Assembly: GCA_963664405.1 (NCBI GenBank)
Contig: OY761158.1
Coordinates: 3,776,001-3,840,000, forward strand
Reading direction: 5' to 3'
From: Thermoanaerobaculia bacterium
Lineage (GTDB): Bacteria > Acidobacteriota > Thermoanaerobaculia > Multivoradales > Multivoraceae
Length of the DNA stretch: 64,000 bases
Shown: one piece after another, positions 37,773 through 43,645 of the stretch
How the letters are laid out: each line of letters starts with the position of its first letter
Numbering within the stretch: position 1 is the stretch's first letter
Translations under genes and position numbers: made by a program
Notes under the pieces: generated by a model
What the model was told of the DNA's origin: nothing
Database searches by the model: none
The model's input: the letters and a program-made list of their open reading frames with translations, nothing else

Positions 37773-38677
37773 TGAGCCGTAGCGGGCTTGGTGGACCGAG
37801 ATTGGCCTGAGAATGGGCCGAGGAGGTGTTCGAATGAGTTCGAAGCGACGGCGATTCGATCGAGAGTTCAAGACTCAGGCAGTTCGTCTGGCGAGCGAAG
37901 AGGGGCAGAGCGGAGCTGCTTCGTCGCTGGAAGAGGGTCTTCGCCGAGGAAGGAGCGCGTGCGTTTCCGGGCGAGGGGCGCGCTCGTGACGAGGACATGG
38001 CTCGCCTGCGTCGAGACCTTCGTCGGGTGACAGAAGAGCTCGACATTCTAAAAAAAGCGGTGGCGATCTTCTCGGAGCGCCGGCGATGAAGTTCCGGTTC
38101 ATTCATGAGCACGTCCAGGAGTTCTCGGTGCGCGTGATGTGTCGGGTCCTTGCCGTGTCGCGAAGCGGCTACTACGCCTGGTGTTCTCGCCCTGAGAGCA
38201 CCCGGAGCCGGGAGGATCGCCGTCTGCTTGCCAAGATCCGTGCTTTCCACCATCGAAGCCGTGGCAGCTACGGTTCGTCGAGGATTCATGCCGATCTGCG
38301 CGAGGATGGAGAGAGCTGCGGTCGGCACCGTGTAGCTCGGCTGATGCGCGACGATGGGCTCGCCGGCAAGAAAGCCCGGCGGTTCAAGACGACAACGGAC
38401 TCGGAGAATTCGGATCCGGTTGCCCCGAACCTGTTGGCGCAAGACTTCTTCGTTGCGACCCCCGACACCGTTTGGGCGGGCGATATCACCTATCTGCGAA
38501 CCCGCGAAGGATGGCTCTATCTGGCGGTGTTGCTGGATCTGTACTCGCGCTTCGTTGTGGGTTGGTCGCTGTCATCGAGCTTGGATCGTTCGCTCCCCCT
38601 TGAAGCACTCGAGAACGCTGTTCGCCGGCGTCGACCCGGCCGAGGTCTCCTGCATCACTCGGATCGCGGGAGTCAAA
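37773..38677 (+). mobile_element. IS3-family element, 5' part (degenerate orfA 37834-38089; orfB from 38086, broken at HHSDRGSQ)
   Basis: left IR TGAGCCGTAGCGGGCTTGGTGGACC; RRFDREFK.QAV, LKKA; VSRSGYYAW, WAGDITY, LAVLLDLYSR. Confidence 0.9.
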
Positions 38678-38755
38678 CTTGGGTTCAAGGGGTCGTCGCA
38701 ACGTTGCCTTGGTGAGCAGAGTGTACAAACTCATCGAAGACTTCGGCAGGGGTTC
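38678..38755 (-). mobile_element. isolated ~78-bp IS30 right-end fragment
   Basis: near-identical to 39170-39247. Confidence 0.85.
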
Positions 38756-39169
38756 TGAGCGGTCACGGTTTCGTGGACACCAAGTTAAGCCCCATCGGGG
38801 CAGTTCCTATTCTGCATCAGTTCGGGTAGTCAGCTTCGGACGAGGCTGTGCGAGGTTCGGGGAGCGCAGCCTCCCTTCGGATCCGACCGCCGGTCGCGCG
38901 TGAGTTCACGCTGCCCCTTCGAAGGCCTCGGGGCTCAGGAATCCGAGCGTCGAATGCTGGCGTCTCAGGTTGTAGAACACTTCGAGGTAAGAAACCGCTT
39001 CGTCGTGAGCTCGCTGACGAGTCTCGAAGGGTCGGTCCCAGACCTCGGTCTTGAGACTGTCGAAGAAGCTCTCCAAGACCGCATTGTCATAACAATTTCC
39101 GACGCCGGACATGCTGCAGCGAAACCGCAGCTCAGCCAGCCGATCCTGGTAAGCCTTCGAGGCGTACTG
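38756..39169 (-). mobile_element. IS3-family 3' part, inverted
   Basis: QYASKAY..SMSGVGNCYDNAVLESFF..LKTE..FYNLRRQHSTLGFLSP; terminal IR TGAGCGGTCACGGTTTCGTGGACAC. Confidence 0.88.
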
Positions 39170-39171
39170 CT

Positions 39172-40619
39172 TGGGTTCAAGGAGTCGTCGCAGCGTTGCC
39201 TTGGTGAGCAGAGTGTACAAGCTCATCGAAGACTTCGGCAGGGGTTCTCCAGCCGAGGGTCTTGCGGGGTCGGCCGTTGAGTGCGAGCGCGACCGCGGCG
39301 AGGTCGTCGCAGGAGTATCTGACAAGGTCGGTGCCCTTCGGGAAGTACTGGCGTAGTAGTCCGTTGGTGTTCTCGTTGGTGCCCCGCTGCCAGGGGCTGT
39401 GCGGGTCGCAGAAGTAGATCGCGAGGCCGGTATCGACGCGGAGTTGAGCGTGTTGAGCCATCTCGGCGCCCTGGTCCCAGGTCAAGGACCGGCGGAGCTG
39501 CTCGGGCAGCGTGGTGATTGACACCGCGATCGCGTCACGGACGGCTTCGGCGCCGTGCCCGGCGAGGGCCGGCCCGTTCTTCACCCTCGATTCGGTCCCG
39601 TGCCCTTCCATGCGGGGCAGGTGCAGCAGCATCGTGAACCGCGTAGTGCGTTCGACGAGGGTCCCGATCGCTGAGCTCTCGAGCCCGACGATCAGGTCGC
39701 CTTCCCAGTGACCCGGCACGGCCCTGTCGCCGGCTTCGGCGGGGCGTTCGCTGATCATGATCTCCGGAGTTACAAATTTCTTGCCTCTCCCCCGGGTTCG
39801 CGCATGCGGCACTCGTAGCGCTCGCCCGGTTCGCAGGCACGCGACGAGCTCGCGTTTGAGGGCTCCTCGACCTTGGATGTAGAGCGCTTGGTAGATCGCC
39901 TCGTGAGAGATCCGCATCGACTCATTATGGGGGAAATCAATCCGAAGCCGGTTCGAGATCTGCTCCGGACTCCAGGATTTCGCCCAACGCCGATCCTGGC
40001 GACGGCCGTGCCGACGGCCGATCCAACGCACATCCGGACCCGGCACCAGCTCCCCGTCAGGCCTTGCGATCACGCCGGCGAGGCGGTTCTGCACGTACTC
40101 ACGCAAGGCATCGTTCGCGGCAAGCTTGGAGACCTTCGGACGGCTGGCGCGCCGCTCCGCGTGCCACTGCGCAGTCGTGGCCCGATAAGTTACGGCACGG
40201 CTGCGAGTCGCCGCGTTGCGGCGCAGCTCCCGCGAAATCGTCGACGGTGAACGACCCAGGCGGCGAGCGATCTCACGTACCCCAACATGCTGAGCGTGAA
40301 GGATGGCGATCTCTTCACGCTCGGCGAACGACAGATAACGCCCCGACACCGGAGCCAACGAGATAGGTCGCATTCCACCAGCTTGCCTGAACCATCTCGA
40401 CCCGACAGCCGGCGACACCCCAGCCTCTGTTGCGGCGTCCTCGCTGGACGCCCCACGAGCGATCGTCTCCCAGAACCGGATCCGGTCCTCGCGCCGCGCT
40501 GTCGAGGGCCGGCCAGGTGACCGCATCTGGCCACGCATCGCTCGAATCGCACCCTGACACTTGCCAACTCCCATCGAAACACCTCCATCACGAGATGTTG
40601 CGACGACCAGTTGAATCCG
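39172..40619 (-). mobile_element. IS30-family insertion sequence
   Basis: IRs GG(G/A)TTCAA...GTCGTCGCA bracket the transposase. Confidence 0.9.
39177..40574 (-). CDS. IS30-family transposase
   Basis: RSPSTISRELRRN, WSPEQIS, ISHEAIYQ, GHWEGDLI, SLTWDQGAEM, PWQRGTNENTNGLLRQYFPKG. Confidence 0.96.
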   Translation of the reverse strand: MGVGKCQGAIRAMRGQMRSPGRPSTARREDRIRFWETIARGASSEDAATEAGVSPAVGSRWFRQAGGMRPISLAPVSGRYLSFAEREEIAILHAQHVGVREIARRLGRSPSTISRELRRNAATRSRAVTYRATTAQWHAERRASRPKVSKLAANDALREYVQNRLAGVIARPDGELVPGPDVRWIGRRHGRRQDRRWAKSWSPEQISNRLRIDFPHNESMRISHEAIYQALYIQGRGALKRELVACLRTGRALRVPHARTRGRGKKFVTPEIMISERPAEAGDRAVPGHWEGDLIVGLESSAIGTLVERTTRFTMLLHLPRMEGHGTESRVKNGPALAGHGAEAVRDAIAVSITTLPEQLRRSLTWDQGAEMAQHAQLRVDTGLAIYFCDPHSPWQRGTNENTNGLLRQYFPKGTDLVRYSCDDLAAVALALNGRPRKTLGWRTPAEVFDELVHSAHQGNAATTP

Positions 40620-40821
40620 CCCAATACACTTGCGAGGACTACCGGGATCGTCTGGCCGAGCTCGGCATGACCGCGAGCATGAGCCGCAAAGGCAACTGCT
40701 TTGACAACGCGGTCGTCGAAAGCTTCTTCGATTCGCTCAAGACCGAGATCGACCAGCAGGTGTTCGAAAGTCGCGAGCAAGCGCGCCAAAGGGTGTTTGA
40801 CTACATCGAGATTTTCTACAA
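40620..40821 (+). pseudogene. IS3 orfB internal fragment (QYT...IEIFY)
   Basis: QYTCEDY..SMSRKGNCFDNAVVESFFDSLKTE..DYIEIFY; continues at 43449. Confidence 0.88.
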
Positions 40822-40846
40822 GTGGGATTCACAATGCTTCACCTCA

Positions 40847-42937
40847 CTATGTGCTTGATATGTGGAGAGTTAGCTGATCGACATCACGTCCTGCGGGGTC
40901 AGTTCGGCTTCCGAGGCCCTCTCGAAACCGCCGCTGGAGGGTCGGATTGTCCAGGTCGCTGCAGTTAAAGACCCATGGACCGTCCTTGAGCGGGTGTTTC
41001 GCCGGTACATCGCCCCGCTCGGCAGCCCGTCGTAGCGTCTTCGCGGCGACACCGAGATGGGCTGCCGCGGCGGTCAGATTCATCCATCCTTCGGCCTGGC
41101 GTATCGCGGACGAGTACACCGGTATGCCACGGTTGTTGCGCAAGGAGGTCACGGCCAGGGCAGACCATCGATTCCCGCGTGCGGTGAGAAGGCCGTTGCG
41201 GGTGAGGTAGCCGGCGATCAAACGGTCCTTGCAGATGCGAGCCAGCTCGCGGATCGCATCGACCACGTCGGGACTCGTGTGCGATGCGCTCTGGCCCCTG
41301 CGGCGCCGTGGGATACGCAGCTCGCTGTGCAGCCCTCCCTTCCAATGAATGGCGAGGGTGACCTCACTCTGCACAGCGTCGATGTCGACGACAATCTCTT
41401 CGATCAAAGCTCGGAGGACGCGCTTCTTGAGACGCGGGTCCGTTTCCGGCGCATTCCACATCCGGTCGAGGTCGAGCTCGAGATCTGCCAAATCGAGGGG
41501 GTCCGGTGCCCTCGATTTCTCGCCCGAGGGTCCCTGCTCGAGCTTTCGCTCCAGCTCGCGTACCTTCTGCAAGGCCTCGTCCCAGCGCCGCTCCAACTCG
41601 CCCGCAACGAGACGATTATCGGGATCCATCGCGTCGTAGCGACGACGGGCCAGCTCCGCCGCGTAGTGGGCTGCTTCCAACTCCATGGACAGAGCTTGGA
41701 TCCGCTCCTGGCGTCGAAGTGCCTCTTGCGAAACCGCGAGCCTCGCAGCCTCGACCGCGCAGGGTCGCACCACCTTGAGAATCTCTTCCGCAACGGCTTG
41801 GTCCACCGACAGCCCGCCAAAGGAGATGCATTTCGGAGCCATCTGGTCGAGTCGGGCGCGATGGCACAGGTACCGAGGGACCGCGGCATTCTTACCCGAG
41901 TAACCAACCATCAACTTGCGACCGCAACGACCGCAACGCAAGAGTCCTGCAAGCAATGCAGCTCCCCGTTTCGGCGCCCCACGACGGCGAGCTGACTGGA
42001 ATTGAGCGACATTGTCATCGAGCATCTGTTGGACCTTCTGAAACCGATCCCACCCAATGTAGCCCTCGTGATGATCGGGGATCAACACCGTCCACTCGTC
42101 AAGGGGCTTGCGCACGACCCTTTTGCGCAGGGATCCATCGACGAGCTCGGTCTTGGACGTCGTACGGCCGTAGGCGTAGGCACCGGCGTAGGTCGGCTCT
42201 TTCAGGATGCCGATAACGGCGTGATAGGCCGGCCGCTTCCACCAGGTCTCCCAGCCCGCGACGCCGCGCCGTTTCGCGGGTAGATCCACACCGTTTTCGA
42301 GAAACCACAGCCCGGCCTGCCGAGCGGTCCCCAACTCGAAGAACTTCGTGAAGACTAGCTCGATGGCCTTCTGCACGCGAAGGTCAGGGTCCTTCTCCAG
42401 GCGTTGATCCGCGGTCTTCACGAAACCCACTGGGGCCTCGATCACCAACTCGCCGCGCTTGGCCTTGGCCCACCGAGCCTCCACCGAGCGTTGGCGCAGA
42501 AGATCCAGCTCGTACTCGCTCATCGTGCCTTTCAGACCCAGCAGCAATCGATCGTTCGCTCGACGAGGATCGTAGATCGTGTCGTGATCGATGAGCAACG
42601 TTTCGACCATGGCGCACATCTCGATCAACTGATGCCAGTCGCGGTTATTGCGTGCGAAACGGGACACCTCGATCGCCGCTACGGCACCGATCCGCCCTAG
42701 ACAAACCTCGGCCACCAAGCGCTGAAACCCGGTGCGACCGTGTGTCGATGTCGCGGAAAGCCCTTGATCCTCATCAATGACCTCGGTCTCTTGCCAGCCC
42801 AGGTCCCGTACGCGCTGCTCCATCGAGTACTGCAGACGCCGGCTCTCGGTGTTGTGCACTAGCTGGTGGTGCGACGACTGGCGCACATAGATCAGCGCCC
42901 GACGCTCGAGATGTCGAACCGTGAGCTTCTCACTCAT
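40847..42937 (-). CDS. large serine recombinase (resolvase + recombinase + Zn-ribbon + C-terminal HTH)
   Basis: IYVRQSS catalytic Ser, EVSRFARN, LLRCGRCGRKL / YLC...KC zinc ribbon, coiled coil, terminal MNLTAAAAHLGVAAKTLRR HTH. Confidence 0.95.
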   Translation of the reverse strand: MSEKLTVRHLERRALIYVRQSSHHQLVHNTESRRLQYSMEQRVRDLGWQETEVIDEDQGLSATSTHGRTGFQRLVAEVCLGRIGAVAAIEVSRFARNNRDWHQLIEMCAMVETLLIDHDTIYDPRRANDRLLLGLKGTMSEYELDLLRQRSVEARWAKAKRGELVIEAPVGFVKTADQRLEKDPDLRVQKAIELVFTKFFELGTARQAGLWFLENGVDLPAKRRGVAGWETWWKRPAYHAVIGILKEPTYAGAYAYGRTTSKTELVDGSLRKRVVRKPLDEWTVLIPDHHEGYIGWDRFQKVQQMLDDNVAQFQSARRRGAPKRGAALLAGLLRCGRCGRKLMVGYSGKNAAVPRYLCHRARLDQMAPKCISFGGLSVDQAVAEEILKVVRPCAVEAARLAVSQEALRRQERIQALSMELEAAHYAAELARRRYDAMDPDNRLVAGELERRWDEALQKVRELERKLEQGPSGEKSRAPDPLDLADLELDLDRMWNAPETDPRLKKRVLRALIEEIVVDIDAVQSEVTLAIHWKGGLHSELRIPRRRRGQSASHTSPDVVDAIRELARICKDRLIAGYLTRNGLLTARGNRWSALAVTSLRNNRGIPVYSSAIRQAEGWMNLTAAAAHLGVAAKTLRRAAERGDVPAKHPLKDGPWVFNCSDLDNPTLQRRFREGLGSRTDPAGRDVDQLTLHISST

Positions 42938-43118
42938 GCTTCCCCTCCTTTGCGAGGCTCGGCGATGACGGTGGGCTCTGCTCTGTCAGGATCTGCGCCA
43001 GCAGAGAGATCACCGCTTCGCGAGTCGTCGCGGGCAGCTCTCGCCAGCTCGGCCGATCGGTCTCGGTCGCGAAGAGCTCGGCTTGGTAGGTAACCCGTTG
43101 GGCGCGTCGATGTCGCAT
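42930..43118 (-). CDS. small hypothetical protein upstream of the recombinase
   Basis: 62 aa, Q.ELF...PSWRELP..TREAV..LLAQIL; overlaps recombinase start and carries its RBS (AAGGAGG). Confidence 0.7.
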   Translation of the reverse strand: MRHRRAQRVTYQAELFATETDRPSWRELPATTREAVISLLAQILTEQSPPSSPSLAKEGKHE

Positions 43119-43407
43119 CGTTTCCCTCCGTAGTCGGTGGAAGACGATTCTCTATCGCGCCCGGACCCTCCTGCTGACGGGTGTCTCTGAGTAATTGCCA
43201 ACAATCGACAAGCGCTTCCCAACGTACGTTGGGCGAAGTCGTTGCCTGCATCCGAGAGCACAGCTCCCGATCAAACATCCATTTGGGAATCTCGAGCTTC
43301 GCGCGCGTCTCGTCATCGTTGACTTGACATCGATAGACCCCGCCGCCCTTCTTCTTGCCGTGGACAACGACTTCCTGCCCGTATTGCGGGTGCCAGCGGT
43401 ACTGCAC
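42934..43407 (-). CDS. small hypothetical protein of the recombinase element
   Basis: YRWHPQYG..V.V, EIPKWMFD..LC motif; 3' part overlaps the 62-aa ORF so true end is uncertain. Confidence 0.6.
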   Translation of the reverse strand: MQYRWHPQYGQEVVVHGKKKGGGVYRCQVNDDETRAKLEIPKWMFDRELCSRMQATTSPNVRWEALVDCWQLLRDTRQQEGPGAIENRLPPTTEGNDATSTRPTGYLPSRALRDRDRSAELARAARDDSRSGDLSAGADPDRAEPTVIAEPRKGGEA

Positions 43408-43448
43408 CCGACGAATCTCGGTCCTGTGATCACTGTGATCGGGACTTG

Positions 43449-43645
43449 TACAATCGGTCCCGGCGCCATTCGACGTTGGGATATGTCAGCCCCGCGACCT
43501 TCGAGCAGCAGCTCCAGGAGGCCGCGTGAGAATGAGGGACCAGCTCCCTCGCCGGCTATCGCCGGCTCACTACGCTGGTCCCTCCTCTACTTTTCTGCCA
43601 CCATGGGTGGCTAAACCAGGTGTCCATCAAACCCGGGCAGGTCCA
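43449..43645 (+). mobile_element. IS3 3' end (YNRSRRHSTLGYVSPATFEQQLQEAA* plus right IR)
   Basis: translation of the fragment; terminal ggtgtccatcaaacccgggcaggtcCA. Confidence 0.85.

Follow-up and report, generated by a model that had tools for sequence, protein, structure and literature searches.

A compact large serine recombinase element at a conserved codon motif of rve-domain transposase genes in a Thermoanaerobaculia genome

The interrupted IS3 gene and its insertion

The 64,000-nucleotide stretch analysed here (the window; positions 3,776,001 to 3,840,000 of contig OY761158.1, assembly GCA_963664405.1) comes from a Thermoanaerobaculia bacterium and holds, at 40817-43448, a 2,632-bp block that interrupts the orfB gene of an IS3-type insertion sequence (IS) at ..DYIEIFY^NRSRRH.. 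(carets mark insertion points throughout). The only conserved genes of the block are a large serine recombinase (LSR) and two small open reading frames, ORF2 and ORF1 (Table 1), as the preliminary description of a cargo-free unit had supposed, and its relatives have the same content and size. Insertion sequences are operationally defined as small elements that encode only their own mobility functions; at 2,632 bp (below ~3 kb) and with no passenger genes, the block falls within that definition.

On the + strand the orfB frame (..SMSRKGNCFDNAVVESFF..QRVFDYIEIFY) ends at 40819 and picks up from 43452 as NRSRRHSTLGYVSPATFEQQLQEAA, followed by the stop codon; the piece upstream of the block matches Pfam rve_2 and rve_3. 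The pentamer TACAA stands at both junctions, where its TA at 40817-40818 forms the first two bases of a Tyr codon of orfB, and for random spans of 2632 bp the frequency of an identical 5-mer at the two ends is 0.0014. For junction checks on public sequencing runs we used assembled contigs rather than raw reads. Logan contigs of runs X21 and X1 link 40816 directly to 43449, omitting 2632 bases, with five letters at the joint that fit either side in both runs; the side of the joint measures 23 letters in X21 and 36 in X1, and sides shorter than 30 carry caution. Both occupied junctions are also covered by other X21 contigs (records 22 and 23). The block is a discrete 2,632-bp insertion with the boundaries predicted from the sequence, and an empty allele of the IS3 exists. 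The exact splitting of orfB between two copies of TACAA, at first only read from the letters, is confirmed by these contigs at the exact coordinates. The arrangement is consistent with conservative recombination across a 2-bp core, without duplication of the target; the empty site differs from the occupied one by exactly the element less the shared bases.

Table 1. Positions of the element, its attachment sites and the interrupted IS3 gene in the window, and of a second LSR family elsewhere in the genome (C1)
Feature	Position	Strand	Remarks
IS3-type orfB, N-terminal piece, ending ..HHSDRGSQ	38086..38677	+	Target gene; separated by IS30-family insertion
IS3-type orfB, middle piece, ..YTCEDYRDRLAELGMTASMSRKGNCFDNAVVESFF..DYIEIF up to the insertion	40623..40816	+	rve_2, rve_3
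Left junction (attL core), TACAA	40817..40821	.	Common to right junction; TA 40817-40818 is the inferred crossover dinucleotide
Element end downstream of LSR stop (putative attP arm), ..AGCATTGTGAATCCCACTTG to core on LSR strand	40819..40846	-	Kept among relatives
LSR, 696 amino acids	40847..42937	-	Pfam domains and alignment of 33 relatives
ORF2, 62 amino acids	42930..43118	-	Overlaps LSR start; conserved
ORF1 open frame, 157 amino acids, GTG start	42934..43407	-	First ~90 residues conserved
Element end upstream of ORF1 (other putative attP arm), core^CAAGTCCCGATCACAGTGAT.. on LSR strand	43408..43448	-	Kept among relatives
Right junction (attR core), TACAA	43449..43453	.	Sequence and empty-site contigs
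IS3-type orfB, final 26 codons, YNRSRRHSTLGYVSPATFEQQLQEAA then stop	43449..43529	+	Sequence and reading-frame analysis
Second-family LSR copies L009-L013	C1:3059775-3061694, 2343368-2345290, 6340841-6342763, 3327542-3329464, 2707863-2709785	-, +, -, +, -	

The host genome (6.78 Mb, a single contig) holds one full copy of the element. A 285-bp remnant of its right, ORF1-side end lies at C1:2054700-2054985 with 95% identity, ends at TTGTA and adjoins another IS3-like gene at YNRRRRHSSIGYFSPMNFEN. The flank of this remnant (YNRRRRHSSIGY; adjoining IS3 sequence YNRRRRHSSIGYFSP) is at the same codon of a different IS3, and the remnant represents a second, independent insertion at that codon. The strict form of the target motif described below occurs at 28 sites in the genome, two of which are occupied; another 22 or so can plausibly be taken as empty rve sites, and 14 of these have the sequence ..TTC TAC AAC... 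The preliminary description had pictured the IS3 motif as a renewable landing site, and such renewal is not visible in this genome, where one full copy and one remnant stand against those empty sites.

Attachment sites and target codons among relatives

A scan of contigs from species-representative genomes found 158 related loci and a scan of metagenomes found 479; the best 80 of each were kept. We examined all 80 kept genome loci together with the 37 metagenome loci whose LSR identity is at least 53%, and left out of the flank reading 43 metagenome loci of 45-50% identity (L130, L131, L133, L134 and L136-L174). The upstream junction was located in 32 loci, namely the focal locus, L015, L016, L018, L019, L020 and 26 of the 37 metagenome loci. 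Flanks were counted per side, with L019 and L123 read by eye. In-frame rejoining of flanks solved 15 of the 27 loci with two flanks; the solutions for L016 and L020 are spurious on the N side, and several of the failures are short or decayed flanks.

The layout is constant among the relatives: junction, 49 nt, ORF1, ORF2, LSR, ~30 nt with a conserved end, junction. The core dinucleotide is TA in 30 of the 32 junctions and AA in the other 2. Translated from the core, the flank follows the strict motif (Y/F)(N/H)xxRxH in 25 of 32 cases and a relaxed version in a further 6 (YNNHHLH, YLTERYH, YLGERFH twice, YHRWHVH and YEKSRTH), so that in 31 of 32 the motif starts at the core; only the decayed copy L096 fits neither form. 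Among 34,370 background positions the strict form matches once and the relaxed form 17 times. Because 29 distinct flank peptides are found among these close relatives, the insertions are independent events. Flanks on the N side end ..RWRWQY^, ..FVDWY^, ..YMHYY^, ..FVTYY^, ..YVEHY^ and similar; by Pfam, that of L015 is rve plus rve_3, and 25 candidate frames from 17 loci include 13 matches to rve_3 and 9 to rve. The target variants are Y^N, Y^H, F^N and Y^L, in IS3, IS481-like and other rve-family transposases. The proposal that the element inserts at the conserved YN codons of IS3 transposases is upheld for the codons, both by these aligned flanks and by the remnant in the host's own genome; as to IS3, its YN codons are indeed used, but the target is wider, a motif of rve-domain transposases in general.

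The same site is occupied on plasmids of cultured bacteria, as ..EWTDDY^NRFRPHSSLGY on pRL10 of R. johnstonii 3841 and as ..AAWRHDY^NHHRPHSSLGN on pACRY02 of A. cryptum JF-5. Relatives are present in 462 plasmid records, annotated only as recombinase family protein and hypothetical protein. The contigs of many relatives are 2.4-3.5 kb long, close to the length of the element, as is typical of collapsed repeats, and in one metagenome-assembled genome 5 LSR copies that are identical to each other lie in different IstB surroundings. Of 33 insertions, 32 have the LSR in antisense orientation to the transposase; the only flipped one, L017, uses the same site (RFVEYY^NNVRLHSAIGF).

When the two inner ends of the block are joined, they form an imperfect palindrome around TA in which 13 of 20 arm positions are complementary (P = 4e-4 for random 20-mer pairs from the window); the arms of the reconstructed attB are complementary at 5 of 20 positions and are not palindromic. 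The palindromic attP centred on TA that was first proposed is thereby borne out, with imperfect arms. Among relatives the LSR-side end reads ..GAGGTG.., then TGTGA or TATGA, N5-6 and TTG^TA, and at the opposite end, in nearly all cases, 49 nt separate the junction from the YRWHP codons of ORF1 downstream. Information content over the 29 distinct sites shows attP arms kept as TGTG/TATGA .. TTG^core on both sides. Over the same sites the C-side half of attB is conserved as TTG (-1 to -3), CG (-11, -12) and TG (-17, -18), the complements of the N, R and H codons of the motif, and the N-side half is almost without conservation.

Two observations place the crossover. The two junctions of L018 have only TA in common, which places the crossover dinucleotide on the opening two bases of the Tyr codon. 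The target codon of L108 and L124 is TTC (F^N, TTC AAT), and these elements have AA as their core, read on the LSR strand. The core dinucleotide thus covaries with the target codon, TA with TAC or TAT and AA with TTC, in agreement with the earlier suggestion of a crossover at the central TA.

The recombinase, its companion genes and related families

The LSR carries the domain set of serine integrases: an N-terminal catalytic domain (Resolvase, PF00239, residues 14-163, E 6.5e-20), a Recombinase domain (PF07508, 189-309) and a zinc ribbon with embedded coiled-coil (Zn_ribbon_recom, PF13408, 328-386), followed by a C-terminal HTH_17 at residues 618-663. A weak Tropomyosin match at 401-468 suggests a coiled-coil-like segment there. 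Residues Y17, Q20 and S21 are invariant across 33 aligned relatives, and S21, by its place in the motif, would be the serine nucleophile. We found no Pfam match at E <= 0.01 to DUF4368, the mark of TnpX and TndX; the N-terminal position of the catalytic domain and the length of 696 amino acids also separate the protein from IS607 recombinases, and its NCBIfam matches are only to XisF and Ccr models, far under their cut-offs. Within the gene, the segment 42387-42608 (codons ~110-183, including LLLGLKGTMSEYEL) has contig depth of 85-298 as against 5-14 elsewhere in the gene, in all four runs, with loose contig ends at 42485 and 42517; this segment is probably common to many related LSR genes in the samples.

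ORF2 is labelled as a hypothetical protein on RefSeq plasmids, and no NCBIfam family was found for either small gene. The pattern Q..LF...W..LP...R.....LLa.lL is present in ORF2 of all clades. When the LSR was modelled together with ORF2 from custom alignments, the predicted complex reached an ipSAE of 0.64, as against 0.00 for the best of 3 controls; a value of 0.64 is attained by 58 of 80 solved complexes and by 2 of 110 mismatched pairs. Contacts agreed between runs to at least 74%, and partner pLDDT was at least 57. The modelled contacts fall at LSR residues 385-405, 490-511 and 532-539, on both sides of the coiled-coil, and ORF2 is accordingly predicted to dock at the base of the coiled-coil. 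The recombination directionality factor (RDF) of phiC31, gp3, is reported to bind the integrase zinc domain (PMC5814800). The model makes ORF2 a candidate directionality (RDF-like) or regulatory partner of the LSR.

The conserved part of ORF1 is encoded at 43138-43407 and holds the motif (H)Y(R/P)WHP..G...PaWM.D in all clades. Where ORF1 really stops is uncertain, since its 3' part and ORF2 overlap in different frames. Among aligned ORF1 homologues, 13 of 30 match DUF5372 (PF17342; best E 2.2e-9), the focal ORF1 itself having no match at E <= 0.1, and the nearest atlas clusters to ORF1 are DUF5372 (score 0.93); by sequence, ORF1 appears to be DUF5372-like. A full-text literature search for DUF5372 found no papers. 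The AlphaFold model of ORF1 (pLDDT 84.6) shows a small beta-barrel and a long helix, for which a Foldseek search of the PDB gave no significant structural match (best E 0.58, SH3 domains) and a wide VIA-align search no meaningful one (best Z 4.5, KOW/SH3-like).

The wider LSR family uses other targets. We classified the best 80 of the 158 genome loci by motif and tblastn, some by eye, and by Pfam. The rve (Y/F)(N/H) site accounts for 5 of them. IS21 IstB is interrupted at its Walker A motif, ..LVGGT^G.GK(T/S)HLA, in 28 loci by tblastn and in L068 by eye, with Pfam IstB_IS21 split between profile positions 101 and 102 in L034. Another 30 loci lie in IS66 TnpC at ..NNxAERxLRxxA^xGRKNxLFAGSD (Pfam DDE_Tnp_IS66 plus the C-terminal element in L074), in flipped orientation in L076 and L080-87. 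Single loci interrupt an LSR gene of the same architecture at RLLLGM^KGTMSEMEL (L057, CAVUHX010000040.1; Pfam Resolvase 1-116, then Recombinase, Zn ribbon and HTH_17), a DDE_Tnp_1 transposase of the IS4-type DDE kind at LVFFD^TTSIYFEG (L061) and IS66 TnpB (L054); two lie in unrelated P-loop genes (L029, L032), two in a protein of no family (L063, L067), and 9 of the 80 are too short or unresolved. Genes of transposition or recombination proteins hold 67 of the 71 assessable loci. In a quick FastTree of 79 LSRs the targets form clades, with a few target switches; the rve clade comprises 6 rows and has support 100, and the clade of IS66-targeting loci shares 41-45% identity with the focal LSR.

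Some individual loci of this wider set deserve mention. The motif interrupted in L057 is also held by the focal LSR itself, as LLLGLKGTMSEYEL. The elements in L029 and L032 are of the IstB type and lie in the Walker A motif of non-IS genes, one encoding a sigma-54-activator-like AAA+ protein and the other a different P-loop protein; these show off-target use of the same coding motif. L063, L067 and L070 form a subclade inside the IS66-targeting clade and are inserted in a gene without a Pfam family (..EALRDLADN^DPEMARWLYRQLEAEYDHLTSDEAIEEG). Pfam searches of the flank proteins of L063 and L029 found no match.

A second LSR element of 3.36 kb is present outside the window in 5 copies, 99% identical, in the same genome (Table 1). 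Its LSR shares 37-38% identity with the focal LSR, and it has other accessory genes, which encode a 185-residue helix-turn-helix protein and a 95-residue open reading frame product. The core is TT, within AGCCC-TT-GGGCT, and insertion is at the N or K codon that precedes the catalytic-E motif in rve transposases, namely those of IS481, IS21 (IstA), IS3 and one further rve family (PYRPRT^NGKAERF, ARGNE^KGRVERAIRF, SPWQ^NPYAERVIG and, in IS3, ..GDCWD^); by Pfam this is the end of rve, or between positions 15 and 16 of rve_3. Relatives elsewhere were read on the right flank only, and 7 of the 11 readable ones have a flank of this kind. Of the five copies in the host genome, L009 and L010 have chimeric flanks: one joins an IS3 N-part to an IstA C-part, and the other joins a non-rve sequence, ..GRPRT^, to an IS481 C-part. 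These suggest deletions or rearrangements via recombination between element copies.

The IS3 orfB of the window contains a second, separate insertion, a 1,944-bp IS30-family unit at 38678-40622. This unit has 14 near-identical copies in the genome and holds both an internal IS3-like orfB C-terminal fragment starting Q^Y and a third copy of its own terminal repeat. Its insertion point in the focal IS3, HSDRGSQ^Y, is at the codon with which its own internal fragment begins, and the IS30 element may prefer this motif as a target. No intact copy of the interrupted IS3 was found in the host's own genome, where the 14 matches at 71% identity are the IS3-like fragment within the IS30-family unit. Just past the orfB stop, a 98-bp stretch (43543-43640) is repeated at C1:2584768-2584865 with 98% identity, and may be an IS3 end or a small repeat.

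Interpretation and alternatives

Taken together, these observations indicate, with a probability that we put at roughly 0.85, that the block is a cargo-free, IS-sized mobile element which uses its LSR as a transposase and targets the rve motif. We infer a route of movement by which the focal copy may still be active. The LSR, probably aided by ORF2 and/or ORF1, would recombine attL with attR to release a 2,632-bp circle, the joined ends of which would form attP as two imperfect inverted arms (TGTGA-N5-ACTTG) around the TA core. The LSR would then join attP to an attB consisting of the DNA that encodes (Y/F)(N/H)xxRxH near the C-terminus of rve-domain (DDE) transposases, with the cut at bases one and two of the Tyr or Phe codon. 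Recognition would act mainly through the half-site downstream of the core, in which the N, R and H codons fix ~7 bases, and the other half would be almost free. Insertion cuts short and inactivates the host IS, and the target itself is dispensable for the cell, multi-copy, plasmid-borne and held constant by protein constraint.

Several points weigh against this account. The empty-site contigs may represent alleles that were never occupied rather than products of excision. A circle-type joint was not found in the contigs of X19, X21, X22 or X1, which counts weakly, as contigs lose rare forms. With about 22 rve sites empty in a genome that has one full copy and one remnant, the element either has low activity here or a specificity more restricted than the motif. 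It is also unusual among serine integrases for one half-site of attB to be nearly free. A palindromic TA core is expected to allow both orientations, on the pattern of phiC31 and Bxb1, and although the core here is symmetric the orientations observed are strongly biased, 32:1; the suggestion that a symmetric TA permits either orientation is realised in L017 and is otherwise barely borne out. Finally, the model of LSR and ORF2 shows compatibility of the two proteins, not binding.

Of the competing explanations, the one that survives best, though we consider it improbable, is that the element is no longer moved by its own recombinase and has instead been copied with its host IS in trans, or spread by homologous recombination or gene conversion between IS copies. 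The single full copy in this genome and the decay of many host IS (L095, L096, pRL10) fit this explanation, and the chimeric flanks of 2 of the 5 second-family copies show that recombination between copies does occur. However, the occupied transposases belong to different families and present 29 distinct flank peptides, spread driven by homology cannot account for the use of the same codon in unrelated DNA, and the LSR, ORF1 and ORF2 are intact and conserved across phyla. Slighter still is the chance that specificity is relaxed, any TA with a short motif sufficing, and that the bias toward transposases reflects the purging of harmful insertions elsewhere. The nearly unconserved N-side half of attB is what this explanation would lead one to expect, as are the IstB-targeting relatives sometimes found in unrelated P-loop genes (L029, L032). 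Against it, any position within an IS should be equally harmless, yet 31 of 32 junctions fall at one codon of a ~300-codon transposase, the motif has a background of only 1 to 17 matches per 34,370 positions, and core and codon covary. That the block is a fragment of a larger prophage, integrative and conjugative element (ICE) or integrative and mobilizable element (IME) with the LSR as its integrase is scarcely credible: LSRs are typical integrases of such elements, and the NCBIfam matches to XisF and Ccr, far under cut-offs, lean the same way, but the empty site shows that exactly 2,632 bp were inserted, the IS3 halves are contiguous, and relatives have the same three-gene content and size.

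A mobile element driven by an LSR and aimed at the rve motif resembles several known systems in part. With the serine integrases of phages and ICEs (phiC31, Bxb1, SPbeta SprA) and their RDFs the focal LSR shares the Resolvase, Recombinase and zinc-ribbon/coiled-coil set, inverted attP arms around a 2-bp core and a small partner predicted at the coiled-coil base. Unlike those systems, the element is 2.6 kb long, with no cargo and two conserved small genes; its attB, a coding motif found across many unrelated transposase genes, has only one informative half-site; and the LSR has an extra C-terminal ~200 amino acids with HTH_17. The clostridial transposons Tn4451/Tn4453 and Tn5397 carry resistance genes. 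Like TnpX of Tn4451/Tn4453, TndX of Tn5397 and the multi-targeting DUF4368 clade, as treated in the available part of PMC10083194, the focal element has an LSR as transposase, many short-motif sites and a 2-bp core; unlike them, it has no DUF4368 match at E <= 0.01 and no cargo gene, and its targets are conserved motifs of transposition proteins. Targets named in the same part of that paper (Durrant et al. 2022) are Mg-chelatase, prolyl isomerase and competence genes, not transposases.

IS607 is likewise IS-sized and moved by a serine recombinase, without DDE-type terminal inverted repeats and without target duplication. According to the accessible text of PMC4058570, however, the TnpA enzyme of IS607 is a small serine recombinase whose domain order is inverted and whose target specificity is minimal, whereas the focal enzyme is an LSR of normal domain order with a defined target. 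The focal clade differs from the IS66-targeting LSR clade in using the rve (Y/F)(N/H) codons and a TA core rather than the IS66 TnpC motif. The use of a mobile-element or repeated sequence as a safe landing site recalls, in concept, the target-specific DEDD insertion sequences IS110/IS1111 and the integrase clades aimed at genes of other mobile elements, as in the helper-embedded phage-inducible chromosomal islands (PICIs; PMC10111431). The former have an RNA-guided DEDD transposase and the latter a tyrosine integrase, their targets differ, and neither is known to use a site that encodes a protein motif shared across IS families.

A full-text literature search, with the supplements of Durrant 2022 on target Pfam enrichment outside its scope, found no account of transposase genes as targets of LSR elements, which bears out the preliminary description in locating the novelty in the target logic. 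New here are the rve (Y/F)(N/H) clade with its core-codon covariation, the empty-site contigs and the LSR-ORF2 model, together with the IstB, TnpB, DDE_Tnp_1 and LSR-in-LSR targets and the second family at the DDE E motif. On balance we favour the broader view that these elements are members of a superfamily, large and so far undescribed, in which serine-recombinase elements would act as hyperparasites of mobile DNA. The integrase of each clade would have evolved to read the DNA that codes for a motif conserved in some protein of transposition or recombination: rve (Y/F)(N/H)xxRxH, the rve DDE 'E', IstB Walker A, IS66 TnpC or TnpB, the first D of IS4/IS1634-type DDE transposases, or the LLLG^KGTMSE of their own kind of recombinase.

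If this is true, transposons provide a habitat for specialised parasites by which they are inactivated, and codons under protein constraint act as portable attachment sites across phyla. The strategy shown here, absent from the literature searched, is to target a protein-constrained coding motif of other mobile elements, which is dispensable to the host, multi-copy, plasmid-borne and conserved across phyla. A widespread IS-like family driven by LSRs would be added to those already known, with 158 relatives in genomes, 479 in metagenomes and 462 plasmid records. The inactivation of IS by LSR elements would bear on IS dynamics and genome rearrangement, and the chimeric flanks of the second family point the same way. 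For the question of how serine integrases read DNA, the family would offer a natural series of LSR, attP and attB sets with shifted specificity, along with candidate directionality partners. Its copies in R. johnstonii 3841 (pRL10) and A. cryptum JF-5 (pACRY02), which are cultured and non-pathogenic, make the family directly testable.

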